Positions 945 to 17,879 of a stretch of 22,338 bases of DNA are shown here, in pieces. This DNA comes from a virus. Numbering within the stretch: position 1 is the first letter of the stretch; each line of letters opens with the position of its first letter. The DNA lies in UHGV virus genome UHGV-0114988; one strand, 5' to 3'. Below the pieces are notes generated by a model, which saw only the letters and a program-made list of their open reading frames with translations, made no database searches and had not been told where the DNA came from. A program made the translations under genes and the position numbers.

Positions 945-1160
945 TCACTCTCCCCGGGCAGCCTTGCGACGGTCCTCTTTAATTTTGAAATACAGATTCG
1001 TCAGGTATGTCAGGAACCCCAGACACAGGCTCCCCAAAACCCCGATAGCAGCCCACTGTGACGGAGTAACCTGATCCAACCACTGTAGAAACCAGTAACC
1101 CGCACTGCCCGCAGAAGTACCATAGGCTATGCCCGTTGATATTTTTTCCATCTGATACAT
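945..1160 (-). CDS. S: Class II holin, phage 21 S21-like pinholin (71 aa) with dual-start motif
   Basis: [31 protein letters not shown]...[13 protein letters not shown] closely resembles S21 as recalled. Met1 and Met4 give the holin/antiholin dual-start arrangement. Sits immediately upstream of the endolysin. Confidence 0.85.
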
Positions 1161-1236
1161 ATCCCCGCCCCGACAGACCTGTGCTACCGGAAATAAAAAA
1201 GGCCATCAGTGTTTTACTGATGGCCCTGCCCCGCCG

Positions 1237-1527
1237 TTACAGCATTGTGCCCGGTTCGGGTTGTGTGTCTGTCATATCCGTCACCGGTGACTCCGGCTGA
1301 ATATCACCATTTTCCGTGGTGACATCTTCCGCCTGTGGTTCCGGAAGCAGTTCCGGGGATGGTTCCGGCTGTGCACCAAGCAATTCATCCAGAATGGCAT
1401 CCACTTCTGCATCAAGACGCGCCTCAAGGTTCTGCCGAAGTTGCTGTTTCAGTGCGCTCCGGACTTCTTCAGAGCGCAGGACTTCCTTCACTGCCTCAGC
1501 AGTGACCAGCGATTTTATTTCTGACAT
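1237..1527 (-). CDS. Hypothetical acidic, Pro/Glu-rich protein (96 aa from internal ATG of track ORF 1237..1701)
   Basis: The track ORF begins with an implausible Cys-rich extension; the internal Met (MSEIKSLVTAEAVKEVL...) gives a compact gene between the nanS-p-like gene and the holin. No recognisable domain. Confidence 0.4.
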   Translation of the reverse strand: MSEIKSLVTAEAVKEVLRSEEVRSALKQQLRQNLEARLDAEVDAILDELLGAQPEPSPELLPEPQAEDVTTENGDIQPESPVTDMTDTQPEPGTML

Positions 1528-1885: not shown

Positions 1886-3877
1886 TTATGATGATGCCCG
1901 GCTTTCGTTAACTTTGACTGTGACCGTATCAAGCAGTACCGGATACGTCGCTTTTGCCCCCGTGATATCTGTCAGCGTCAGCGTATCTGCTGTAAAGCCA
2001 TCATTTGTCCACATCACCAGGTCAAACGCAGACTGCTCTGTATCATCAATCACCGGCACCACTTTTTCGCTGTTATTTCCCGCAAAGCGGAAAACAACTG
2101 TATGCCAGTTATGGTCAAATGCCCCAAATGTGCCCAGTTGCGCATTCGACTCCCCCTTGTGGTACATCAGATTCAGATTTGATGCATCCGTCTGAAGGAA
2201 GAAGGACGCCAGCATGCTGTTTGCTGTCGCGCCTGACGCCCACTGCGACACCGGCCAGTACAGACCAAAGACAAACTGACCGTTAACCAGTTCGACACCC
2301 TCCGGGATCTTAAACCGCACGGCAATTTCACCTCCCTTACTGAGAAGATTTTTTGCCTCCTCCACCGCAACAGTACGGAACATCTTCCAGGAGGTCAGTT
2401 TACCCGGCTGTTTTTCCAGTCGCAGCGCCTTCCTGCCACTGTCATCCGTCACAGTGCCTTTACCACCGGACGCATTCCACTGCTGCTCTGTCCATACACC
2501 ACTGCCACTGTTCGCATCATATCCGGCCACCATTCTTGTTACGGCTTCAGTATGACCGCCTGCAGAAGTACCTGCACCCTGCTGTTGCGTCGGACCCGCA
2601 GAGCCAGACTGTGCATCCCCCGTGGAGGCTGGCGTGGTCGCCAGCGGTGCAGACTGCCCGCTCAGGAACGGCAGCAAACGCCCGGCTCGCACCAGTATCT
2701 CTCCTGCCAGCCGATCTGAAACAATGCCTCTTCGCGCCCAGGAGCTGAAGTGCGTTTTACGATCGGCTGTCGTCCAGTTACCATTACTGCGTGACGCGGC
2801 ACCATAGTATCCCGCCGTGATAATGTCCGGATCTTCTGACGGCTCGTTTGTCGGCACATTCGCACCATGCTCATCCGTCATCAACGGCACAAAGTGAATA
2901 TTCTGCGCCGCCTTGCCTTTATAGCCTCCGTAAACCGCCTCATACTGCACTGCATACTTCGCCTTCCAGTCGTACGTGGTGTCACCGCAAATCCACGGGA
3001 CGCCGGACGTTGTCCCGCCAATACACTGGTCTGCAATATCTGCCAAGTCTGCACGGTATTTATTTACCATGGCAAGAAAAAGTGCATTGTGCTCTGCATG
3101 TCTCCCCGAACTGACATCTTTTTCCCCCTGCATCCAGATCACCGACAACAGCACGTTTTTCGGATTTTTCTTCAGGGCTGCACGCGTTCTGCTGACCAGG
3201 TCACGATACAACGGTTTATCCACCCCCCACAGGGAAGAGCCCGCTGTCGCACCCGACGCCTCATTAAACGCGCCCTCTGCTCCCGCAGTAAATCCCGAAT
3301 CGCCACGTCCACACGGGACAAGAAGGATCCCCGCACGGGCAGGCATAAACGGCAGCAGTTTTTTGGCCACATGCAGGGCATGCCCCACACAGCCATACTG
3401 CCCTTTATTGAGGTCTGCTTTCGGGTGATTCAGATTACTCACGTCCTGCACATCATGCAGACAATGGTCTGCAGGAATAATGTCGTTATATGCACAGGCC
3501 GCACCGCCCGGTGTCACCGTGCTGCGACGCGCCAGTTGCTTAATACGCGGGTCAGGACGATCATACGTATCCGGCAGCGGCAGCCCCTCGCCAAAAGACA
3601 TCGAGTTGGACTGCCCGGCCAGCGCAATGACAAAGTAATATTCCGGTTCGCTGGTGGTGCTGATAACTGTGCCTTCTCCATCCGACGGCTTCACCACCAC
3701 AGGTGTGGTGACATTACCTTCTGCGACAATCGCCTGAATAAGTGCTGCGCCATCATCCGTATACGAAGAAAACGGCCCGCCGTATGGTTGCCATCCTTCA
3801 CGAATTTTTTGAGCAAGCGCATCCGCAAGGTCTGACGGCGATGCCGCCCTGACCACGTCATAGTGTTTAAATGCCAT
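1886..3877 (-). CDS. nanS-p: NanS-p-like prophage sialate 9-O-acetylesterase (SGNH/SASA-type hydrolase), 663 aa
   Basis: GQSN catalytic-serine motif (YFVIALAGQSNSMSFGE) and an N-terminal segment resembling the DUF1737-type region of EHEC prophage NanS-p proteins, from memory. Strong GGGAGG RBS before the ATG at 3877. Occupies the position downstream of Q/tRNA as in Stx-type phages. Confidence 0.75.
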   Translation of the reverse strand: MAFKHYDVVRAASPSDLADALAQKIREGWQPYGGPFSSYTDDGAALIQAIVAEGNVTTPVVVKPSDGEGTVISTTSEPEYYFVIALAGQSNSMSFGEGLPLPDTYDRPDPRIKQLARRSTVTPGGAACAYNDIIPADHCLHDVQDVSNLNHPKADLNKGQYGCVGHALHVAKKLLPFMPARAGILLVPCGRGDSGFTAGAEGAFNEASGATAGSSLWGVDKPLYRDLVSRTRAALKKNPKNVLLSVIWMQGEKDVSSGRHAEHNALFLAMVNKYRADLADIADQCIGGTTSGVPWICGDTTYDWKAKYAVQYEAVYGGYKGKAAQNIHFVPLMTDEHGANVPTNEPSEDPDIITAGYYGAASRSNGNWTTADRKTHFSSWARRGIVSDRLAGEILVRAGRLLPFLSGQSAPLATTPASTGDAQSGSAGPTQQQGAGTSAGGHTEAVTRMVAGYDANSGSGVWTEQQWNASGGKGTVTDDSGRKALRLEKQPGKLTSWKMFRTVAVEEAKNLLSKGGEIAVRFKIPEGVELVNGQFVFGLYWPVSQWASGATANSMLASFFLQTDASNLNLMYHKGESNAQLGTFGAFDHNWHTVVFRFAGNNSEKVVPVIDDTEQSAFDLVMWTNDGFTADTLTLTDITGAKATYPVLLDTVTVKVNESRASS

Positions 3878-4074
3878 GAATCCTCCCGGCCGGGATAATG
3901 TTGTGAGTCAGATAAGGGGCGGGCTGAAGTCCGGAAGTTACAGGACAATGACAGAAGGAAGACTACAGCCCGCAATACGAAAAAGGCCGCGCAGTTGCGC
4001 AGAGTGATTACTGTCGGGTATTATTCGCCAGCTGAAAAATTGATTACTTCACGTTTTGTTGTTTATTCCTTGCT

Positions 4075-4103
4075 GCCCGCGTCTCCCGGCGCGGGCTTTT
4101 TTT
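4075..4103 (+). terminator. Intrinsic-terminator-like hairpin (GCCCGCG-N8-CGCGGGC) plus TTTTTTT on + strand
   Basis: 7-bp GC stem, 8-nt loop and 7-T tract read directly; no U-tract on the minus strand. Confidence 0.4.
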
Positions 4104-4442
4104 GCATGTAAAAAGGCTCCTGCGATGAGGAGCCTGGATATATGCCTAATCTCTGTATACAGCATGATGCCGGGTGCCTCCCGGTGAGTTCAGTATCAGC
4201 ACCTGAACCCGCACCAGATAAGGGATATAACCAACCACCTGTCGCTGATATGCCCCTCCGCACAGGGGGATTCACCATGCCAGTTTCTTTTAACAAATAC
4301 TCAGTCTGACAGGCAACTGTCAACTGACTGAATTGTGAGACATTTAAAATTTTCGGGGCATGACTGATACCCGGCTAACCACCTGATGCTTCCTTTTTTA
4401 GCAACAAACAGGTCCACCAAAGTGAGACAGAAAAAATAAGTG

Positions 4443-4519
4443 TGGCGCGTTGTACTGGATTCGAACCAGTGACCGATTGCTTAGAAGGCAATTGCTCTGT
4501 CCGGCTGAGCTAACAACGC
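4443..4519 (-). tRNA. tRNA-Arg (anticodon UCU), 77 nt
   Basis: Minus-strand sequence GCGTTGTTAGCTCAGCCGGACAGAGCAATTGCCTTCTAAGCAATCGGTCACTGGTTCGAATCCAGTACAACGCGCCA folds as a cloverleaf: 7-bp acceptor stem, anticodon stem ATTGC/GCAAT with loop CTTCTAA, T-arm ACTGG-TTCGAAT-CCAGT, and an encoded CCA. Confidence 0.85.
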
Positions 4520-4630
4520 ATGAAGTTTTCTGTAATCATCCTCGTTTGGTAACTGCCACTGGCTGACACTGAACCAGTGCGATGTCATGTTTTTCTTTCC
4601 TGTTTTATTAATTTTTCCCCAGCAGAAGAC

Positions 4631-4660
4631 AAGAAAAAAGGTTCCGGTGTTATCGGAACC
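4631..4660 (-). terminator. Minus-strand hairpin (GGTTCCG-N7-CGGAACC) followed by TTTTTTCTT; candidate tR'-like terminator or pause structure
   Basis: Perfect 7-bp stem with a U-tract on the minus strand, 30-60 nt downstream of the Q stop codon. Confidence 0.4.
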
Positions 4661-4679
4661 TTTCAGCAGTAAGCATACA

Positions 4680-4685
4680 ATTATA
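4680..4685 (-). promoter_or_regulatory. Consensus -10 hexamer TATAAT on minus strand just downstream of Q (candidate late promoter pR' -10 / Q-utilisation region)
   Basis: TATAAT read on the minus strand 5-10 nt after the Q stop. No convincing -35 was found, so this is tentative. Confidence 0.25.
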
Positions 4686-4689
4686 GACG

Positions 4690-5112
4690 TTATAACCATA
4701 ACATATTTTTTTGTGCGCACACAACCCTTTCAGGTAGTACAACTTCAGGATCCATATCCAACCTTACTCCCTGCAGAGTCAGAGCTCCTTCCAGAAATGC
4801 TTCAGACGCCTTCAGGGATGTCCGTACGCTAAAATGACTACGGTCTATCGCCTCAGCAATTGCACGCGTTGAGAGGCCGCCTATAAAACGTAACCCCAAG
4901 ATCAGCAAATCATCGTACGGGCAAACCATACTCATATGCGCGATGCAGGTATCAATCACCGCTCCATCCTCGTCAGAGCAACCGGGTTTGCCACTGTCGG
5001 TTACGTCCCGGGAAGTAACCGACATTGAGGGCCAGTCAACCATTGAACAGTATTCCTCGCTCGCCGCCCATCGCCCCCACCGCTCCAGAACAAGTTGCAT
5101 ATCTCTACGCAT
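4690..5112 (-). CDS. Q: Late-gene antiterminator Q (phage 21/933W-type Q family)
   Basis: N-terminus MRRDMQLVLERWGRWAA resembles 21/933W-type Q proteins as recalled. Position is immediately upstream of the tRNA/late lysis region. Confidence 0.65.
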   Translation of the reverse strand: MRRDMQLVLERWGRWAASEEYCSMVDWPSMSVTSRDVTDSGKPGCSDEDGAVIDTCIAHMSMVCPYDDLLILGLRFIGGLSTRAIAEAIDRSHFSVRTSLKASEAFLEGALTLQGVRLDMDPEVVLPERVVCAQKNMLWL

Positions 5113-7932: not shown

Positions 7933-8607
7933 ATGATTGATACTACCGATATCCTTTCTCAAAACATCAAGTACCTGATGGACAAAGCCAAGATAAGCTC
8001 GATAACTGAGCTGGCACGTCGGTTACAGCTGAACCAACCAACGCTACACAGGCTGGTATCAGGAGAGGTGAAAGATCCGAAATACGCAACGTTAAAGCAG
8101 ATCGCCGACTACTTCCACGTGTCACCAATAGACTTGGCAGAAAGGAGCCTTCAAGAAATGGAGAAAGAGGACGCGACAGGTATAAAAACGTATATTTCTC
8201 TTAGGTTTAATAAAGTACCTGTTTTGGGAAACACTCAGCTAGGCGTTGGAGGACTTTGGAGCGACACCCAATATTCAGTAGGTAGCAGTGATGGTTTCAT
8301 ATACTGGCCGACAAAGGATGAAGATGCATACGCCCTGAAATGTGTTGGTGATTCAATGATGCCTAGAATCAAAGAGGGGGAGTTCGTAATCGTCGAACCC
8401 AACCACGACTACACTCCTGGTGATGAAGTACTTGTGGTTACCCGGGACGGTGAGGTCATGGTTAAAACCTTCTTGTTCGAACGCGATGGCCTGTTCCATC
8501 TAATGTCTGTAAATGAAGATCATCCACCAGTCAGAGTACCACGCGAAAACATTGAAAAAATCCATTACGTGGCGGGGATCGCCAAATCCGCGCTACGTAT
8601 GTACTAA
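7933..8607 (+). CDS. cI: CI-like prophage repressor: N-terminal HTH plus C-terminal LexA/S24-type autopeptidase domain
   Basis: N-terminal HTH (SITELARRLQLNQPTLHRLVSG); C-terminal GDSMMP (Ser nucleophile) and VMVKTF (Lys) consistent with an S24 Ser-Lys dyad; 224 aa. Confidence 0.85.
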   Translation: MIDTTDILSQNIKYLMDKAKISSITELARRLQLNQPTLHRLVSGEVKDPKYATLKQIADYFHVSPIDLAERSLQEMEKEDATGIKTYISLRFNKVPVLGNTQLGVGGLWSDTQYSVGSSDGFIYWPTKDEDAYALKCVGDSMMPRIKEGEFVIVEPNHDYTPGDEVLVVTRDGEVMVKTFLFERDGLFHLMSVNEDHPPVRVPRENIEKIHYVAGIAKSALRMY

Positions 8608-8640
8608 CCTTTACAGTCTGATAACTTACTTCTGATCAAA

Positions 8641-8670
8641 CCGCTCTCCACAAGGGCGGTTTTCTTATTT
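8641..8670 (+). terminator. Intrinsic terminator after cI (CCGCTC-loop-GGGCGG plus TTTTCTTATTT)
   Basis: 6-bp stem (including one G-U pair) followed by a T-rich run, 34 nt after the cI stop. Confidence 0.45.
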
Positions 8671-8691: not shown

Positions 8692-8721
8692 TTGACACAA
8701 AATCCCATAACGCATATAAAT
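8692..8721 (+). promoter_or_regulatory. Near-consensus sigma70 promoter (TTGACA-17 nt-TATAAA(T)); candidate early-left pL-type promoter, overlapped by operator-like repeats
   Basis: TTGACA at 8692-8697, 17-nt spacer, TATAAA at 8715-8720. Motifs CATAACGCATATAAA (8706-8720) and GATATCGCATAATCA (8724-8738) overlap the -10 and start region; the latter matches the cro/cI intergenic site at 14 of 15 positions. Confidence 0.5.
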
Positions 8722-8756
8722 ACGATATCGCATAATCAATGCATTTTTTAATACTG

Positions 8757-8768
8757 GCTCTTTAACAA
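8757..8768 (+). promoter_or_regulatory. boxA-like antitermination element GCTCTTTAACAA
   Basis: 12-nt identity to the rrn-type boxA core (UGCUCUUUAACAA) as recalled, about 35 nt downstream of the predicted start of the pL-like promoter. Confidence 0.4.
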
Positions 8769-8913
8769 ACTAAACCGCGTGACAGGTAAGCCGCAGTACT
8801 CCTGGCAAAATGAAATGGCACCCGATGGGATCGAGGTAAGCGCCGAGTCCGTATGCGTACGGTAAGCGTAGAGGACAACACCGCGACAAACTGATAAGTC
8901 ACGCAAGTTGAAA

Positions 8914-8944
8914 CGCCCCGACGATGGGGCGCTTAGTTCCTTTT
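8914..8944. terminator. Hairpin CGCCCC-GACGAT-GGGGCG with U-rich flanks (terminator-like, possibly bidirectional)
   Basis: 6-bp GC stem; CTTAGTTCCTTTT follows on + strand and TTTCAACTT on - strand. Lies about 80 nt 3' of the minus-strand gene 9026..9550 and about 190 nt downstream of the pL-like start. Confidence 0.35.
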
Positions 8945-9025
8945 GGGGTGGGGTGAAGATCAGTCCATTGAGTCAATCCGAAGTTCAGCATCTACCACTA
9001 CACCACCACCAAAGAGAACTGCTAA

Positions 9026-9550
9026 TCATCTGGCAGGTTGTAACGGTGCAGGAATTTTGCCACTGACTTCTATATTTCGGGGAAATTTATATTCAGCGGA
9101 GCATTTATGACACTTGAGAATTTTATAAGCGGCATTAGAAGTATGGTATTGAAGTATAGACTTCATACCCGACTCATAGCATGTAGTACAAAGATAATGA
9201 GGCTTGAACTCAGGATCGTCAGTAGGCTTCAGTACATAGACCACCGTATTGGTAATCGGGTGGTACATTTCATAGTTCATTTTCTCACTATCCCAATCCT
9301 GTTTCTTTTCCAGAAGGGATTCGAGTTCAACAATGCGCTGTTTAGCTTCGTTCAAAAGCTCCGTTAGTGCGAATTGTCCAGTACGCGCATCAATTAGTTT
9401 ATCAAGTAGATCGATAGTTTTACTTTTAACATTGTAATCCACCTGCAACGCATTAACTTCTTTTGCTAAATCAACAGCACCTTTCAAAGCACCACCAGCA
9501 CTAGTGGCCGCCTCAGTTATACGCCGTACAAGTCCTTTTTCTTCAGACAT
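9026..9550 (-). CDS. Hypothetical coiled-coil protein with C-terminal Cys4 zinc ribbon (174 aa); moron-like gene opposed to the early-left operon
   Basis: ATG ORF; N-terminal 100 aa predicted helical/coiled-coil; CxxC...CxxC (CTTCYE...CHKCSAEY) at the C-terminus. No family recognised. Confidence 0.55.
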   Translation of the reverse strand: MSEEKGLVRRITEAATSAGGALKGAVDLAKEVNALQVDYNVKSKTIDLLDKLIDARTGQFALTELLNEAKQRIVELESLLEKKQDWDSEKMNYEMYHPITNTVVYVLKPTDDPEFKPHYLCTTCYESGMKSILQYHTSNAAYKILKCHKCSAEYKFPRNIEVSGKIPAPLQPAR

Positions 9551-9570
9551 CTTAATTCTCTCTAAAACTA

Positions 9571-9620
9571 TAGGGGTAAAGAGATATTAGCCGAATTCTC
9601 GCTGTAGGGGTACAGAGAGA
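9571..9620. repeat. Two direct repeats TAGGGGTA(A/C)AGAGA spaced about 34 bp, upstream of the minus-strand gene 9026..9550
   Basis: Read directly at 9571-9584 and 9605-9620; plausible promoter/operator elements. Confidence 0.3.
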
Positions 9621-9678
9621 GCCATCTCGTCTGACGTGGTTAAAACTGACATCCATGTAATTGCTGTGTGTAGCCTTT

Positions 9679-9707
9679 GCCCGCCTCAAGTGACGGGCTT
9701 TTTTATG
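9679..9707 (+). terminator. Intrinsic terminator (GCCCG-N10-CGGGC plus TTTTTTAT) on + strand
   Basis: 5-bp GC stem, 10-nt loop, 6-T tract, about 55 nt upstream of the small ORF at 9764. Confidence 0.4.
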
Positions 9708-9763
9708 TCTGAAAGCGCACTCGCAACAGCGCGCTCCCCGATATGAAAAAAGGAATACAACCG

Positions 9764-9913
9764 ATGAAACCTGAACACATCCATCGACTGACGGGGCGCG
9801 ATGTTCTCCGTTATCGCCGTAAAAACTTCGATTTGATGACCGGTCTGGCCGTTGCCACTGCGCTCGGTCTGATCATCACTTTCATTCTCCTTGTAGCGAG
9901 GACCACAGTATGA
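9764..9913 (+). CDS. Hypothetical small tail-anchored membrane protein (49 aa; alternative start at 9743 gives 56 aa)
   Basis: [49 protein letters not shown]: basic N-terminus, C-terminal TM helix. AAGGA RBS 8 nt upstream. Stop TGA overlaps the ATG of the next gene (ATGA). Confidence 0.4.
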   Translation: MKPEHIHRLTGRDVLRYRRKNFDLMTGLAVATALGLIITFILLVARTTV

Positions 9914-10812
9914 GTTTAGAAACCAGTCTCGAACTTAATAATCAACTTCTGGCACAACATAATGCGCTGCTTGAACGTCTTATCCGCACAATGGCATCAG
10001 GTATTGTTATGCATCCTGACACGATTTCACGAGTGCAGGAATGTCGGGATACAGCAACTGAAGCTGAAAACATGTCAGCGGCAATGACACTGGATGATCT
10101 GGAGTTCAGCGACGTTATCGCACTGGCTGGTTTCTACCCGGTAGCCACCCCTATCACAGAAGACATGCTGCAACGTGCTGTTGCCTACCGTGATGCTGAA
10201 GGCGATAAACGAGTAGTTCAGATTGATGCTCTCGACAGCGCATTGCAGGGCGTCAAACGAGCCAGGGCGCTGCTTAAACCTGCTCTCCTGGACCTGTCCC
10301 GTAACATTCTTAAGTTCTGGGACGACCTGCCAACCATCGGCGAGCGACGTGCTTTTGCCGAGCAGCTACTTGATGCACCTGCAGATGGGCGTGATGAAGT
10401 TAAACCGAAAAAGGCTAGTGACAAAGATGGAGAACGCACGGGGCCGTTTTACGTCAAAAATATATCCGGCACAGCAGCCAGTGAACTCCACACCTTACGC
10501 AAGTTGAACGAGATGCTTAAAAAAGGCCATATCGAGATCAACCGTGTTGAGTACCTTCAGCTGCAGGAAGAATTTGCACGCAGAGACGCAGCAAATTCCA
10601 GCCAGAATAATGACGCCAAAGATGACCATACAATTGATTTCGCGGCACTACGCAAACAAGCTGAAGGGTTGATCCTCCAGTTAGCAAAAGGGGGTTACCG
10701 GGCAGAAGCTATTGCAATTCTGGAAAAACAGGGAGCCAGGAAACTTGGTGAAGTAATGGATGAAAATCTCGCTGAAGTAATCACCCTAGCTGAAAAAGCA
10801 CTGGAGGGTTAA
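9910..10812 (+). CDS. Hypothetical acidic helical protein (300 aa), first large gene of the rightward replication/recombination operon
   Basis: Long ATG ORF in operon context, translationally coupled on both sides. No motif recognised. Confidence 0.55.
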
Positions 10813-10814
10813 TC

Positions 10815-12116
10815 ATGCCAGACGTTCACGCACAACTTTCTCCATCATCAGCGCATCGATGGATGCGCTGCCCAGGAAGTCTGGCGCTGGAGGCCACACA
10901 ACCGGATAAAGAAACAACTTTTGCAATCGAGGGCACTGCAGCGCACGCGCTTGCTGAAAAAGTTCTACGAAACAGGCAAAGCCACCCGGAACACTACGCC
11001 GGATGCAATGTTTCTATGTTTCTCGGCTCATACCCCCTTCGCGAAAATCCTGATGATACATCTGGCCCACAGGTGGATGATGAAATGGTCGAAGCCGTTG
11101 GGCGGTATGTTGATACGGTCTGGACTCTTGCACAGAATAATGAACTATTGGTTGAACAACGTGTTGATTTCTCACATATAACGGGGGTGGAAGAATCTTT
11201 CGGAACTGCCGACGGCATAATCATCGCTGGTAACGAATTACAAATCCACGACCTGAAATATGGCAAAGGCGTCCGCATTGATGCAGAACAAAATGAGCAA
11301 CTACAACTGTATGCTCTGGGTGCGCTCGAACAATTCAGCATGCTGTATGACTTTGAGACTGTAAGATTATTTATTCACCAGCCAAGGCTCAACCACGTTT
11401 CAGAATGGTCATTAACCGTACAGGAACTTCAGTCTTTCGGTGAACGGGCACAGGAGGCCGCAACCAGTGCGATCCTTGTTCTCAATATTGCTGAATGCGA
11501 AGGCATTGAGACACTACCGCTGGAAAACTTCATACCTGGAGAAAAACAGTGCCGCTTCTGTAAAGCAAAAGCTATTTGCACTGCCCAGAAAATGCAGCAT
11601 TTACAAACAGCGGCCAGCGATTTTGAAGATCTGACAAAGCCTGTCAGCGAAATAATCACCAATGCCAGCGCACGTGTACCTCTGTTAACCATTGAGCAGC
11701 TTGCGGAGATCTATAGCCAGGCCGACTTTATTGAATCCTGGCTAAAGGCAGTACGAGACCGGGTTCACAATGAACTCAATGCCGGACATCCGGTACCGGG
11801 GTTTAAACTGGTAACAGGAAAACAAGGTAACCGGGCCTGGAGTGATGAAGAGGCAGCTCGCGCACTTCTGAAGGACCAGTTCAGGTACAAAACTGAAGAA
11901 GTATTCGACTTTAAACTTATTAGCCCCACAAAAGCCGAAAAACTTATCAAAAAGGCCAGTCCGCGCCGTTGGTCAAAAGTCGAGGCACTGATAACACGAG
12001 CTGATGGTAAACCCACCGTCGTTCCCGAGTCAGACCCACGCCCCGCACTCAATATTAACCCTATAAATGATTTCGACGACGTATCCGACGATACGCTAAC
12101 CGCAGACCTCATCTGA
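10815..12116 (+). CDS. PD-(D/E)XK nuclease, Cas4/RecB-like phage exonuclease with C-terminal Cys cluster (family often annotated DUF2800)
   Basis: N-terminal [15 protein letters not shown]-x-K-type motif IHDLKYGKG, Cys cluster [10 protein letters not shown] suggesting an Fe-S or Zn site. 433 aa. Family assignment from memory. Confidence 0.7.
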
Positions 12117-12720: not shown

Positions 12721-13063
12721 GCAAAGGGGAATATGCCCAGAGCTACCTGTATTGTTCTGGTTAGCACCCAGTCGCCCTGCTACCCCGATATTGACTCATC
12801 GCCCCCTTCCGGTTTATGCTCACCGAATCTCCCAAATGGAGATCGGGATTTGCAACCCGGAATTGTTAGGGGCGACACCAGACGCGCCAGCGTCTTTTTT
12901 ATTGTCGCAAGCTTTGCCACGTTCGCATTATGGCGGGCTGGCGGGGGCGCTTCGGCGCGCCGGTTTCCTCTAACGCCGGTATTGCAAACCTCGTCAGTTC
13001 GCCACCCATATGAGATTTGCAACTCAGTGGTGGCGGTGAATTTCACCGTTAGAGGTAACTGTG

Positions 13064-13828
13064 ATGGCAACTCAGCTCATCCCCGTTTTCAACGGCGCTA
13101 TCGCCAACGAAACCACCCTGCTCTGCAATGCTCGCGATCTGCACGCATTCCTTGGGGTAGGGAAAGTGTTTGCAGCGTGGATTACATCACGAATTGCAGA
13201 CTATGAATTCGTTGAAAATCAGGATTATATCGTAACGTTTTCCAAAACTGGAAAGCGTAAAAATGTTCTTTGTAAGGACTACCACCTCACTCTCGATACA
13301 GCCAAAGAACTGGCGATGGTGGAGCGCAACGAAAAAGGCCGCCAGATCCGCCGATACTTCATCGAGTGCGAAAAGAAACTTCGCCAGCAATCCTCCACGA
13401 TACTGGCGCCACACAGGGAGTGTCTGCCGAAGATGGTTTACCATCACCGGAGCAAATACAATCCGTACAGGGCTTATGCATGGGACGGAGAGAAAAGCGT
13501 TTACGTCGGGTGCTATCCGACTGTGGATGAGGCTGTCGCTGCTCAGGAACGCTTCTACCGGAACGGCAGCACGAAACGCATTCAGAAGGCGCAGACAGCA
13601 GTCAGTGACGCAGAGAAGGAAATGTTCATCAACAATCTCCGCGCCGTCTGCCATAACTTCCGGCGCATCAATGAAATCTGGCGGGCGCAGTTAATGCCTG
13701 CTCTCGAAAAAATGGATTCGAAACTGGTTTACCAGCTGCATGACCGCTTCAGCGACAGCATGTGCATTCTGCCGACCATAGAAGACCGCATCGGCAGATA
13801 TATTCCGCCGTCACAGCTTCCACACTAA
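13064..13828 (+). CDS. AntA-family antirepressor-like protein with uncharacterised C-terminal domain (254 aa from ATG; track start is GTG at 13061)
   Basis: N-terminal region (ARDLHAFLGVGKVFAAWITSRIADYEFVENQDY ... YHLTLDTAKELAMVERNEKGRQIRRYFIECEKKL) resembles the AntA/AntB N-terminal domain as recalled. AGAGG RBS. Confidence 0.6.
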   Translation: MATQLIPVFNGAIANETTLLCNARDLHAFLGVGKVFAAWITSRIADYEFVENQDYIVTFSKTGKRKNVLCKDYHLTLDTAKELAMVERNEKGRQIRRYFIECEKKLRQQSSTILAPHRECLPKMVYHHRSKYNPYRAYAWDGEKSVYVGCYPTVDEAVAAQERFYRNGSTKRIQKAQTAVSDAEKEMFINNLRAVCHNFRRINEIWRAQLMPALEKMDSKLVYQLHDRFSDSMCILPTIEDRIGRYIPPSQLPH

Positions 13829-13943: not shown

Positions 13944-14543
13944 TCATTTGGCCTGATACTTACTTGCATCTATTTTCAATAATTGGGAATTATACTTCTT
14001 TATAACGCCTCGTCCCGGAAAAAGAAACCAAAACATAAAAGCCATCCATATACACAGCAGCATTAAAACAGCGCTCATTCCTATAAAAACAGCGCCATAA
14101 TTTAACGACCAACAGAAAAATATCAAGCCATCAGCCAAATAAAAGATAGAAACAACTTTAGAACACCAGCGACATCGTTTGTATTTACCTTTGTAGCGTA
14201 TAAAGAATCTATCGTATTTACACTGAATATGGGGTGCTAAATAACCCCACTGCCAAAACGGCATTTTCAATTCAGAATACGTTCTGACATAAATAACTAA
14301 CGTTCTTAATTTCTGGCTACTTATACCTAATATACTTTTTTTAACTTCTCTTTTGATTTCTGCCTTCATAAACTCTACATCAGAAGGCTCAATATGCTCC
14401 GGATAATTCTTCAGAATATGCGAGAATTTTGTTGTTTTCGGTAAAAACCAACTAGCATCTTTAAATAACTTATAAACACCGACTGGTGCAGTTATGGCTG
14501 AAATTATGACTCCAACAAGTGAGATAATATCTTTCGTATCCAT
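13944..14543 (-). CDS. Hypothetical AT-rich membrane protein (about 199 aa from ATG at 14543; track ORF starts at a TTG at 14570)
   Basis: Markedly AT-rich codon usage relative to its neighbours; predicted TM helix at the N-terminus (IISLVGVIISAITAPVGVY) and two at the C-terminus; Lys/Arg/Cys-rich central region. Opposite strand to the flanking replication genes. Confidence 0.5.
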   Translation of the reverse strand: MDTKDIISLVGVIISAITAPVGVYKLFKDASWFLPKTTKFSHILKNYPEHIEPSDVEFMKAEIKREVKKSILGISSQKLRTLVIYVRTYSELKMPFWQWGYLAPHIQCKYDRFFIRYKGKYKRCRWCSKVVSIFYLADGLIFFCWSLNYGAVFIGMSAVLMLLCIWMAFMFWFLFPGRGVIKKYNSQLLKIDASKYQAK

Positions 14544-14569
14544 GTAGCTAATTCTTCGGAGTAAATACA

Positions 14570-16633
14570 ATGTCCAATATACTATGGGGCGACCTGGAAA
14601 CTTTCTGTGAAATATCTATCAATAATGGCACCCATGCGTATGCCGAAGGCGTTGAAGTGATGCTGTTCGCATGGGCTATCAACGACGGGCCAGTAAACGT
14701 GTGGGATATCACTGCCGGTGGTGGTATTCCACACGGCTTATACGAAGCAATCGCAGCCCCTGAAACCCTGCTTTATTTTCATAACTCTCACTTCGACCGC
14801 ACCGTCCTGCGTTATGCAATGCCGCGCCTGGCACCGCCAGTCGAACGTTGGCGCGACACAATGGTGCAGGCGCTGGCGCACGGTCTCCCGGGGTCTCTGG
14901 GGGAACTCTGCGAAGTACTAGGCGTCCCGCAAGACAAAGCGAAGGACAAAGAAGGTAAAGCGCTGATCCAGCTGTTCTGTAAGCCACGCCCGAAAAACAG
15001 CAAACTGCGCCGGGCCACCAGCAAAACCCACCCGGAAGAATGGCGGCGCTTTGTTGCTTACGCCGGACTGGATATCGAGGCAATGCGCGAAGTCTGTAAA
15101 CGTCTGCCGAAGTGGAATTATCAGGGGACAGAACTGGCGCTCTGGCATCGTGATCAGCAGATCAATGACCGGGGCGTCTGCATGGACGTGGAACTCGCAC
15201 GCGCTGCGATCGACGCGGTAGACCAGGAACAAAAGCGCCTGGCAAAGCGTACACAGGAAATGACTGATGGCGAAGTGCAGGCAGCCACACAACGAGACGC
15301 GTTGATTAAGCACATTGTTGAATCCTACGGTGTGGAGCTACCAGACATGCAACGCAGTACTCTGGAACGTCGTATTGCCGACCCCGATTTACCATCTGCC
15401 GTGAAAGAACTGCTGGCTATCCGCCTGCAGGCCAGTACTACCAGCACCAGTAAATACAAGGCACTGATGAAAGGCGTAAGCCACGACGGGCGCTTACGCG
15501 GTACGCTACAGTTCTGCGGGGCGTCACGTACCGGTCGTTGGGCCGGACGGCTATTCCAGCCCCAGAACCTTCCCCGCCCTTCACTCAAACAGGAACAAAT
15601 AGACGAAGGCATCGAAGCACTGAAAGCCGGATGTGCAGACCTGCTGTTTGACAATATCATGGAACTAACCAGTTCAGCGTTACGTGGCTGCATTATCGCG
15701 CCAACAGGCAAAAAGCTGGTGGTAAGTGACTTGTCGAACATTGAAGGCCGTATGCTGGCATGGCTGGCGGGAGAAAAATGGAAACTGAATGCATTCAGAG
15801 AGTACGACGCCGGGACGGGTCCGGACTTATATAAACTGGCGTATGCAAAAGCTTTCGATATTGCACCAGATGATGTTGATAAACACATGCGTCAGATCGG
15901 TAAAGTCATGGAACTCGGTCTGGGTTATGGTGGTGGTGTGTCGGCCTTCATCACTTTTGCACTGGTTTACGGTCTCGATCTCGACGAGCTGGCGAACGCC
16001 GCACTACCAAACATTCCCCGCGATGTTATCCGCGAGGCGAAAAGCTGGTACGACGAATCGGTTAAACGCAAGTCAACCTACGGGCTTTCTGAACGGATAT
16101 TTATCGCCTGCGACTCACTTAAACGTCTCTGGCGCAGGGCGCACCCGGCGACCTGCGATTTCTGGTACGAACTGGAGCGCACCGTCCGCACTGCAATCGC
16201 CACACCGCAAAAAACATTGTATTGCGGCTATCTTAAAATCCGCCGCGATGGCGCGTGGCTGCGCATACAGCTACCATCCGGACGCGCTGTATGCTACCCG
16301 TCTCCGGTTATCGAACAAGGGAATATCACCTACATGGGTGTTAACTCTTATTCGCGTAAATGGCAACGACTCAAAACCTACGGCGGAAAGCTGGTGGAGA
16401 ACGTCACCCAGGCGGCCGCCCGCGACGTTCTGGCCAGAAACATGCCGCTTATCGAAGATGCCGGTTACAGCATTGTGCTGACGGTACACGACGAGGTGAT
16501 CACCGAATCACCTGACACAGAAGATTTCAACGATAAAGCGCTTTCCGCGCTTCTCTCCACTAACCCCGAATGGGCGCCCGATATCCCACTGAACGCTGGC
16601 GGTTTTGAGGCGTACCACTACCGTAAGGATTAA
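14570..16633 (+). CDS. Family A DNA polymerase (T7/PolI-like) with 3'-5' exonuclease domain, 687 aa
   Basis: Exo motifs GDLETF and [12 protein letters not shown]; polymerase motif [16 protein letters not shown], motif [17 protein letters not shown], motif C LTVHDEVI. Confidence 0.9.
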
Positions 16634-17564: not shown

Positions 17565-17879
17565 TTATTTTTTCCCCAAACGATTTTCTACGAGTTCATG
17601 CAGCCTTTCTAAGAGTTCTGTGTTTTTTTCAATATTTTTGCCCCACTCATTAAGCAAAGATTCAGCTTCGCGTCCAAGCCCCATACCTTCAGCTTGGCGT
17701 AGATATAAAAACGCATGAGTATTCTGGCTTTCCAGCTTATTTATTGCAGGAAATGAAGACCTTAAGCGTTGAAGCACCTCTGCATTCAACGAACGACCGT
17801 TAGCACGGGCTGCATTCTCCAATAATTCTTTCAGTTCCGCAGGTAAACGGATCTTCATCTGCGCATCTTCACGACTCAT
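17565..17879 (-). CDS. Mnt/Arc-family ribbon-helix-helix repressor (104 aa)
   Basis: N-terminal KIRLPAELKELLENAARANGRSLNAEVLQRL is an Arc/Mnt-type RHH; length and C-terminal extension are Mnt-like. Divergent from the Rha-like antirepressor operon. Confidence 0.6.
   Translation of the reverse strand: MSREDAQMKIRLPAELKELLENAARANGRSLNAEVLQRLRSSFPAINKLESQNTHAFLYLRQAEGMGLGREAESLLNEWGKNIEKNTELLERLHELVENRLGKK

Follow-up and report, generated by a model that had tools for sequence, protein, structure and literature searches.

Among prophage proteins that protect lysogens, Rip1 ('ring interacting pore 1') is not toxic on its own and, according to a review (PMC13434031) of the work of Patel et al. (Nature 651:1060, 2026), its family is assigned to defence by published deletion and expression work. 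The review also relates that escapers carry portal mutations in Pseudomonas phages and small-terminase mutations in E. coli phages, that in cryo-electron microscopy (cryo-EM) 12 Rip1 molecules surround an 11-mer terminase ring, that the amphipathic helix at the N-terminus lines the pore together with the C-terminal half, which contacts the ring, and that the complex with the ring releases dye from liposomes and brings about premature cell lysis. Two further papers agree on the sensor role (PMC13601566, PMC12908700). The assembly of a 12-mer with a terminase ring is known only for the Rip1 of Escherichia phage HK446 with the small terminase (TerS) of Enterobacteria phage T6, the complex named in the title of the cryo-EM entry PDB 9oox. 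The subject here is a gene, rip1, for a protein of 174 amino acids (aa) on the minus strand of a 22,338-nucleotide (nt) stretch of the virus genome UHGV-0114988 (the window). It encodes a Rip1-family protein, by sequence and by predicted fold, and what an initial annotation had put forward as a candidate exclusion or defence moron is thus supported but no longer novel, the family and its mechanism having already been published in 2026. Very probably the gene is a Rip1 abortive-infection defence that is expressed in the lysogen from a sieB-type cassette and damped in lytic growth by opposing transcription or antisense RNA.

The other described system that is close at hand is sieB. Ranade and Poteete reportedly described, in 1993, sieB and the sas antisense RNA of P22 and lambda. 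Window rip1 occupies the same type of slot as sieB and sas do in those phages, downstream of PL and antiparallel to it; the sieB leader is homologous to that of rip1, and in other phages that leader, sometimes within identical flanks, carries SieB. There the likeness ends, as Rip1 is unrelated to SieB, the window has no conserved internal start for an Esc-like truncated product, and the 3' hairpin of sas is partly deleted. SieB membership of the window protein was rejected on the lack of a PF14163 match up to E 10 and of a hydrophobic segment, and an Esc-like internal in-frame start was rejected since Met91, Met95 and Met129 are not conserved in the family alignment. The initial annotation's description of an accessory defence gene of sieB or rex type is sustained through the Rip1 homology and the sieB-homologous upstream region. 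According to reviews (PMC12197685, PMC7067206), sas switches sieB translation and so lets P22 escape its own exclusion, and the P22 antisense transcript of the sieB leader region is real and abundant in infection (PMC13397905).

Further systems are comparable at a greater remove. BstA with aba (Owen et al. 2021, PMC8585504) is a likeness in concept only, being a prophage abortive-infection protein encoded beside the repressor with a cis element that spares the carrier; BstA has no sequence or fold relation to Rip1, and aba is a DNA element whereas the candidate self-immunity element of the window would be an antisense RNA or opposing transcription. Avs1-3 and TerI also sense conserved oligomeric late phage proteins, the large and the small terminase respectively, and kill the cell (PMC13601566); Avs proteins, however, belong to the large STAND NTPases and have effector domains apart from the sensor, whereas Rip1 combines sensor and effector in 150-190 aa. 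RexAB of lambda is likewise an immunity-region, lysogen-expressed and membrane-acting abortive-infection system, but it is two-component, unrelated in sequence and co-transcribed with cI, whereas in the window rip1 and cI are convergently oriented and rip1 has a separate leader. The Fc02 overlapping exclusion genes, also considered, belong to a different locus in B3-like phages.

The initial annotation had been unable to name a family, and the profile and structure-prediction searches that it proposed both lead to Rip1 (9oox). With phmmer against PDB sequences the window protein has one match, 9oox_L, 'ring interacting pore 1 (Rip1)' (E 8.4e-45, residues 3-159), and a profile of its family matches the 9oox Rip1 at E 5.5e-51; that chain is gp37 of HK446, 47.5% identical to the window protein. 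When an AlphaFold2 model was compared with PDB by Foldseek, the only significant matches were 9oox_M (E 1.4e-11, with a TM-score of 0.82 on the target and 47% identity) and 9oox_L (E 9.2e-11). Distant homologs, at about 29-31% identity, include DMS3-25 (BLASTP 2e-21, about 29%) and D3112 orf25; further Pseudomonas Mu-like phages, JBD30 and MP38 among them, have the corresponding protein. Among 1.84 billion representatives the profile found 4433 homolog clusters (defined at 50% identity) at E <= 1e-3, 641 of them at E <= 1e-30. Viral contigs hold 80 rip1 loci; a search of plasmids gave no true plasmid match, the sole one being a mislabelled chromosome. The protein has no match in Pfam or PADLOC and only the unnamed family phrog_1244 in PHROGs, and at its gathering cut-off Rfam has no match for the rip1 open reading frame (ORF) or its leader. 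By sequence comparison the window gene is a divergent allele of the known Rip1 family.

With HK446 Rip1 and that of the Pseudomonas Mu-like phages the window protein shares full-length homology, the predicted fold and the invariant Cys and aromatic residues, and in HK446 and DMS3, as in the window, the gene is prophage-borne and antiparallel to neighbouring lytic genes. What differs is the phage around it, the window having a yfhL-integrating backbone, neither lambda- nor Mu-like, in which the primase is of VapE type and the DNA polymerase of family A. The C-terminus also differs, ending in the window in an 18-residue proline-rich tail (PAPLQPAR being its last residues) in place of the YDPF/YDPY tail found in the 606R2, Citrobacter amalonaticus (P0005) and DMS3 alleles. 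As an observation apart, a Y-D-P-F/Y motif closes some E. coli, Citrobacter and Pseudomonas Rip1 C-termini; the homologs bearing it or compared for it are those at L001 7462-8031 and L002 3450-3977 and P0005 (alignment A1).

The 174-aa minus-strand ORF of the initial annotation is borne out, with its coding sequence running over 9026..9550 from an ATG start. It is under strong purifying selection, the ratio of nonsynonymous to synonymous substitution rates (dN/dS) being 0.06-0.11 against relatives at 75-93% amino-acid identity, and is for that reason a functional gene and not a chance ORF. In the AlphaFold2 model, which was built on 54 homologs and has a mean pLDDT of 80.6, helices at residues 2-34 and 39-90, in agreement with the helical N-terminal part foreseen, are followed by a small five-stranded beta domain bearing four Cys. 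These are C121, C124, C147 and C150, so that of the CxxC-N21-CxxC ribbon first proposed the two CxxC pairs stand while the spacing, counted by residue positions, is N22. In the alignment the four are invariant in all 54 homologs, with H118, K130, L133 and Q134 nearly so; from E. coli to Pseudomonas DMS3-25 it is the four Cys, W86, Y93, Y105, K130, L133 and Q134 that are conserved. Residues 13-27 form a Gly/Ala-rich stretch, and no transmembrane segment is predicted in the protein (maximum KD19 0.67).

Four-Cys ribbons often bind DNA or RNA, and rip1 is a neighbour of cI in the immunity region. Might the protein then be a regulator of early-left or immunity transcription, a coiled coil with a zinc ribbon that binds nucleic acid? 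We regard this as extremely improbable. No regulator was matched in Pfam, NCBI-type or PADLOC searches; the one relative with a solved structure binds rings and makes pores; and homologs turn up at positions as different as the immunity region, the slot of sieB and the module for terminase, unlike what is expected of a dedicated regulator.

The mode of action envisaged is that of the characterized family members. As the literature has it, Rip1, harmless alone, wraps late in infection as a 12-mer round a ring-shaped oligomeric phage protein, namely the small terminase in E. coli phages and the portal in Pseudomonas phages. The C-terminal half touches the ring, the N-terminal amphipathic helices make a pore in the membrane, and the host cell dies before progeny are completed.

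Just past the cI terminator comes a strong PL-like early-left promoter on the plus strand (8692..8733), with TTGACA at 8692-8697, N17 and TATAAA at 8715-8720. Two 14-mers of the type ATMCGATAWCGCAT, which resemble CI operators, overlap it at 8702-8715 and 8720-8733, and the region between cI and cro has 14-mers of this type as well (7827 and 7883). The promoter with its operators confirms the earlier placing of a pL-like promoter upstream on the plus strand with rip1 antiparallel to it. A consensus promoter scan gave no promoter-like site in 9551-9742, and the same scan also missed the PL-like promoter because the -10 of the latter ends in A. Together the promoter, its operators and the lack of a promoter-like site in 9551-9742 support a layout in which rip1 would be antisense to a CI-controlled early-left transcript.

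Elsewhere too the gene tends to face its neighbours. By a crude ORF heuristic, the nearest ORFs of at least 100 aa on either side are both on the opposite strand in 45 of 67 dereplicated viral rip1 loci, with both on the strand of rip1 in only 1 of the 67. In HK446 rip1 is between N and a ral-like gene and opposed to the annotated PL, and DMS3-25, again antiparallel, has on one side gene 24, with an annotation as DNA-binding protein, and on the other the gene for the large terminase; the review cited (PMC13434031) locates Rip1 between the genes of the two terminase subunits, small and large.

It is a mobile cassette with a sieB/sas-type leader in which rip1 sits. Alignment of the flanks with related prophages puts the borders of this swap cassette, the rip1 ORF plus leader, at about 8932 and 9649 (8932..9649, no strand being assigned), and its GC content is 41.8% compared with 49.9% for the window. 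Flanks are 97-100% identical in related prophages. In vB_EcoM-606R2, -689R2 and -611R5 they are 97% identical to those of the window, and Rip1 itself only 44.5%. The leader and first six codons are about 90% identical between the window and 606R2-type alleles, and the two proteins have 57% identity in the N-terminal helix and 37% in the C-terminal domain; the strongest divergence being in the C-terminal domain would fit a changed recognition target. In KY203 and GF4 the same flanks enclose other small plus-strand ORFs. That in KY203 (L005, about 2930-3060) is unannotated, of about 64 aa with CPAC...CPEC and without a PHROG match, and that in GF4 (L006, 2801-3007) is annotated as a 68-aa hypothetical protein. 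The flanks occur in 160 of 5426 complete E. coli genomes and the window rip1 allele in 26.

In principle lysis could be timed by a pore that responds to terminase or portal rings, and the gene is inside the packaging module in Pseudomonas Mu-like phages, so that one may ask whether the Rip1-fold protein serves the phage itself, in lysis timing or as a packaging checkpoint, and not in defence against other phages. That is very unlikely in our estimation, given that rip1 is antiparallel to lytic operons in most loci, that its slot is variable and holds other small ORFs instead, or SieB in other phages, that the deletion and expression work covered by the review (PMC13434031) assigned the family to defence, and that the window phage has its own lysozyme and a related prophage a full holin and lysozyme cassette.

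The cassette's regulatory portion is its leader. About 110 nt upstream of rip1 are conserved across enterobacterial rip1 loci whose proteins are 40-60% identical, and the conservation extends to HK446, whose backbone is unrelated. From its far end the leader has a two-helix element, GCCUG/CAGGC interleaved with AACCAC/GUGGUU, then a box, GUACCCCUACAG, within an imperfect hairpin, a nearly invariant TA...T hexamer, and a second box, ACCCCUACAG, followed by GAGAG and AUG. In the window the repeat TAGGGGTA(A/C)AGAGA is at 9571-9584 and 9605-9618, as part of 17-mer copies 34 nt apart. Both 17-mers are on the minus strand: the proximal box, sense ACCCCTATAG (9568..9584), would coincide with the candidate rip1 transcription start or come just behind it, and the distal box, sense GTACCCCTACAG (9602..9618), would be in the -35 region of the candidate promoter and inside the imperfect hairpin. 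The proximal box is kept in at least 20 distinct rip1 and sieB leaders. From an alignment of 25 leaders the candidate -10 of the sieB-type rip1 promoter is TAATAT (9584..9589, minus strand), the TA...T positions of which are invariant or nearly so in the 25. A transcription start near 9577 is predicted, with a 5' untranslated region (UTR) of about 27 nt and GAGAG at 9558-9562; no convincing sigma-70 -35 for rip1 was found by eye. It is from this promoter, within its own cassette, that rip1 would be transcribed in the lysogen.

By blastn nt 27-103 of P22 sas, in the RNA-seq-mapped version of PMC13397905, align to the plus strand of the window at 9568-9645 with 64 identities in 78 (82%, E 6e-17), a segment (9568..9645) that runs antisense to the promoter region of rip1 as well as its 5' UTR and includes both CUGUAGGGGU-type boxes. 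P22 sas RNA is the reverse complement of a rip1-type leader. As P22 sas aligns there, the two repeats of the initial annotation are the CUGUAGGGGU motifs of a sas homolog; they are present as it described, and not, as 'own' repeats would imply, Rip1-specific, being part of a shared sieB/sas module with its two CCCCUACAG boxes at 9568-9584 and 9602-9618. Two other interpretations of this sequence were set aside. A type III toxin-antitoxin system with repeats spaced by 34 nt was dropped, Rip1 being reported as non-toxic alone and the repeats being sieB leader boxes, and a LexA box in CTGTACCCCTACAG was rejected on its spacing, N6 and not N8.

In viral contigs TACCCCTAYAGYGAGAA was found at 120 loci or more. 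Of the 80 that were read, 16 have rip1 downstream of the leader; in many of the rest the ORF there is for a SieB-like membrane protein, of several types, and the four representatives checked all match Pfam PF14163 (1e-13 to 1e-29). Still others have an 83-aa ORF without a family, or a shortened leader. In different phages identical 5' flanks hold rip1 or sieB. The 83-aa ORF (MDLEMDIPDMVFPISLTHP...) is behind a sieB/sas-type leader in L088 (about 1140-1390, plus strand) and in L099 (minus strand of the locus), has no Pfam or PHROG match, and is a candidate new exclusion gene.

Is the leader read as RNA or as DNA? The upstream boxes and the palindromic flanks might be DNA sites, a promoter with operators for a protein regulator and not an antisense RNA, with the sas homology reflecting a shared sieB promoter. 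To either side of the nearly invariant TA...T hexamer stand boxes 34 bp apart, one at the -35 and the other at the transcription start of the candidate promoter, just as that proposal would have it. It further draws on locus L057, where both boxes are replaced by CCGCAACGTAA, as would fit a changed cognate binding factor, on the lack of a sas-type promoter visible by eye inside the rip1 coding start, and on the damage to the sas 3' hairpin in the window. Against it, an antisense transcript of exactly this region exists in P22 and is abundant in infection (PMC13397905), and stems that covary round fixed loops are an RNA-like pattern. In the two interleaved leader helices, specified by hand for the test, 82% of cells are paired versus 27-46% with partners slid; six pairs are changed on both sides, and none of 500 shuffles reaches the observed score. 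With the 25-sequence leader alignment left untrimmed, no pairs were predicted by RNAalifold. We consider DNA sites for a regulator an unlikely explanation of the boxes, though one that merits consideration, and it and antisense RNA are not mutually exclusive.

In the window the 3' part of the sas segment retains a remnant of the two-helix element (9620..9649, plus strand), in which P2, AGCCAU/GUGGUU, is kept via G-U pairs. Compared with L013 and L008, the point changes of the window allele in the two-helix element keep pairing only on the plus (sas) strand, again via G-U. The L057 leader (3866-4006, plus strand) is that of a rip1 gene and has both ACCCCTACAG boxes swapped for CCGCAACGTAA with the two-helix element and a TATAAT hexamer retained, a concerted change which suggests a specificity determinant, be it a loop-loop contact or a cognate factor.

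To return to the defence cassette damped by opposing transcription or antisense RNA, how would a prophage fare when its own terminase and portal rings are being made? In lytic growth of this phage, or of a relative with the same cassette, opposing transcription, antisense RNA or both would cut Rip1 synthesis. The antisense RNA would cover the rip1 ribosome-binding site, and the lowered Rip1 would spare the phage's own rings. A sas-like antisense RNA may thus add to transcriptional interference in silencing rip1. As rip1 has no sas promoter that could be found within it, and the 3' end of sas has suffered damage, any antisense role in this allele may depend on read-through from PL, and for such read-through the RprA-like terminator described below is downstream of the rip1 region.

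Several considerations weigh against the account given here. The mechanistic details of Rip1 are taken from a review and a PDB title, and defence by the window allele is argued from sequence and fold. Identity to HK446 Rip1 is only 47%, and to the Pseudomonas protein about 29%, and in view of this divergence from the characterized proteins the trigger of window Rip1 may differ from theirs. N-terminal amphipathicity is moderate, with muH 0.43-0.49 for residues 1-24, values that would suit a helix able to enter the membrane without being decisive for one. By eye no sigma-70-type sas promoter is seen in the rip1 5' coding region. In the window allele group an 11-bp deletion (CGAGTGCCTGC, sense strand) removes one arm of helix P1, and as G-U pairs occur on both strands, which strand folds is left unsettled by the sequence, counts of G-U versus A-C giving about two events in favour of the sense strand and about four to five in favour of the sas strand.

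Both hairpins that the initial annotation saw flanking the gene exist, but they belong to the plus-strand prophage backbone and not to the gene. The first closes a conserved 175-nt leader of the PL transcript (8757..8931, plus strand), which ends in a CGCCCC/GGGGCG hairpin at 8914-8931 and is nearly unchanged even in a relative with another repressor and other operators. On the minus-strand side of the hairpin only TTTC follows, so that for rip1 it would be at best a weak terminator. In the 8757-8931 leader the motif GGTAAGC occurs three times, and besides the terminal GC hairpin there is a long-range stem, GCGUGAC/GUCACGC; the leader has no Rfam match, and folding of the PL leader (8727-8948) gives a minimum free energy that does not improve on shuffles (z = +0.98). 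Because the early-left operon lies behind a strong terminator, this leader could be an RNA antitermination element of put-like type. The second hairpin is part of an RprA-like 3' element (9650..9708, plus strand), an intrinsic terminator with its stem at 9679-9698 (GCCCGCC..GACGGGC) followed by T6. Rfam RprA matches 9650-9708 (AAUUGCUGUGUGUAGCCUUUGCCC, its 3' half) with 46 bits and E 2.8e-4, under the gathering score of 70. The element is present with or without rip1 in the slot and directly precedes the early-left operon. In other loci also (e.g. L059, L124, L128) it adjoins sieB and rip1 cassettes, and a literature search turned up no description of RprA mimics in prophages.

As to its wider content, the window covers half of a temperate phage, marked as such by its CI-like repressor, Cro-like helix-turn-helix (HTH) protein, antiterminator Q and integrase, and E. 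coli strain A4 has the same prophage integrated beside yfhL. The repressor (HTH plus S24 peptidase; 7933..8607, plus strand) has a terminator at 8638-8662. Minus-strand genes are, from left to right, a lysozyme, a nanS-like esterase, STnc100 small RNA with a tRNA, Q, the VapE-type primase and the Cro-like protein, with the integrase on the same strand at the far end of the window. The early-left operon starts on the plus strand with a 56-aa ORF, a 300-aa ORF and a DUF2800 PD-(D/E)XK nuclease (9743..12116) and goes on, after the nuclease, with an Enc34-type single-stranded DNA-binding protein, an isrK/C4/AntA module, family A DNA polymerase, VRR-NUC, Rha and SNF2. The module (12827-13828, plus strand), isrK (RF01394, 50.9 bits) and C4 antisense RNA (RF01695, 70.6 bits) followed by an AntA-type antirepressor ORF, is by these matches identified as an RNA-controlled antirepressor module of P1/P7 or Gifsy type within the early-left operon. 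On the minus strand at 1886-5112, with Q at 4690-5112, a tRNA at 4446-4519, STnc100 at 4104-4309 (174.6 bits) and, downstream of Q, a 663-aa DUF1737/SASA-esterase/DUF6645 protein at 1886-3877, the layout is that of the Q-to-lysis gap of Stx phages without the toxin gene. Two ORFs on the minus strand are antiparallel to the early-left operon, one of 208 aa (13944-14570) without a Pfam or PADLOC match and one for a 104-aa Arc/ribbon-helix-helix protein (17565-17879), and these may be further accessory slots. In 606R2 a gene with a TIR-like domain comes after the polymerase.

In the literature searched no paper links Rip1 with sieB or sas, though the primary Rip1 paper may cover part of this. As far as that literature goes, it appears new that enterobacterial rip1 rides in a sieB/sas expression cassette, and that sieB, rip1 and other ORFs replace each other behind one leader; equally new is that the leader could be a beacon for new exclusion genes, the 83-aa ORF being an example. 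That the sieB leader with its sas-type RNA is a portable self-immunity switch, reused for SieB, Rip1 and the 83-aa protein, is a tentative proposal, somewhat less likely to be right than wrong. If true, any phage with the cassette could silence a resident copy in its own lytic growth, and swapping of the effector ORF or of the ring-contacting C-terminal domain (37% identical between alleles in one backbone) would change what is excluded. Also if true, Rip1 self-tolerance in enterobacterial prophages would be RNA-based, and the leader would serve to point out exclusion genes.

For now, a gene hitherto annotated everywhere as 'hypothetical', across related prophages equivalent to about 160 complete E. 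coli genomes, gains a name and a testable mechanism, and near-identical prophages with Rip1 alleles that are 44.5% identical, and most different in the ring-contacting domain, offer a comparison of trigger specificity. The sieB/sas link joins a defence protein of 2026 to the classic antisense-RNA switch of 1993, and suggests how prophages avoid death by their own Rip1.

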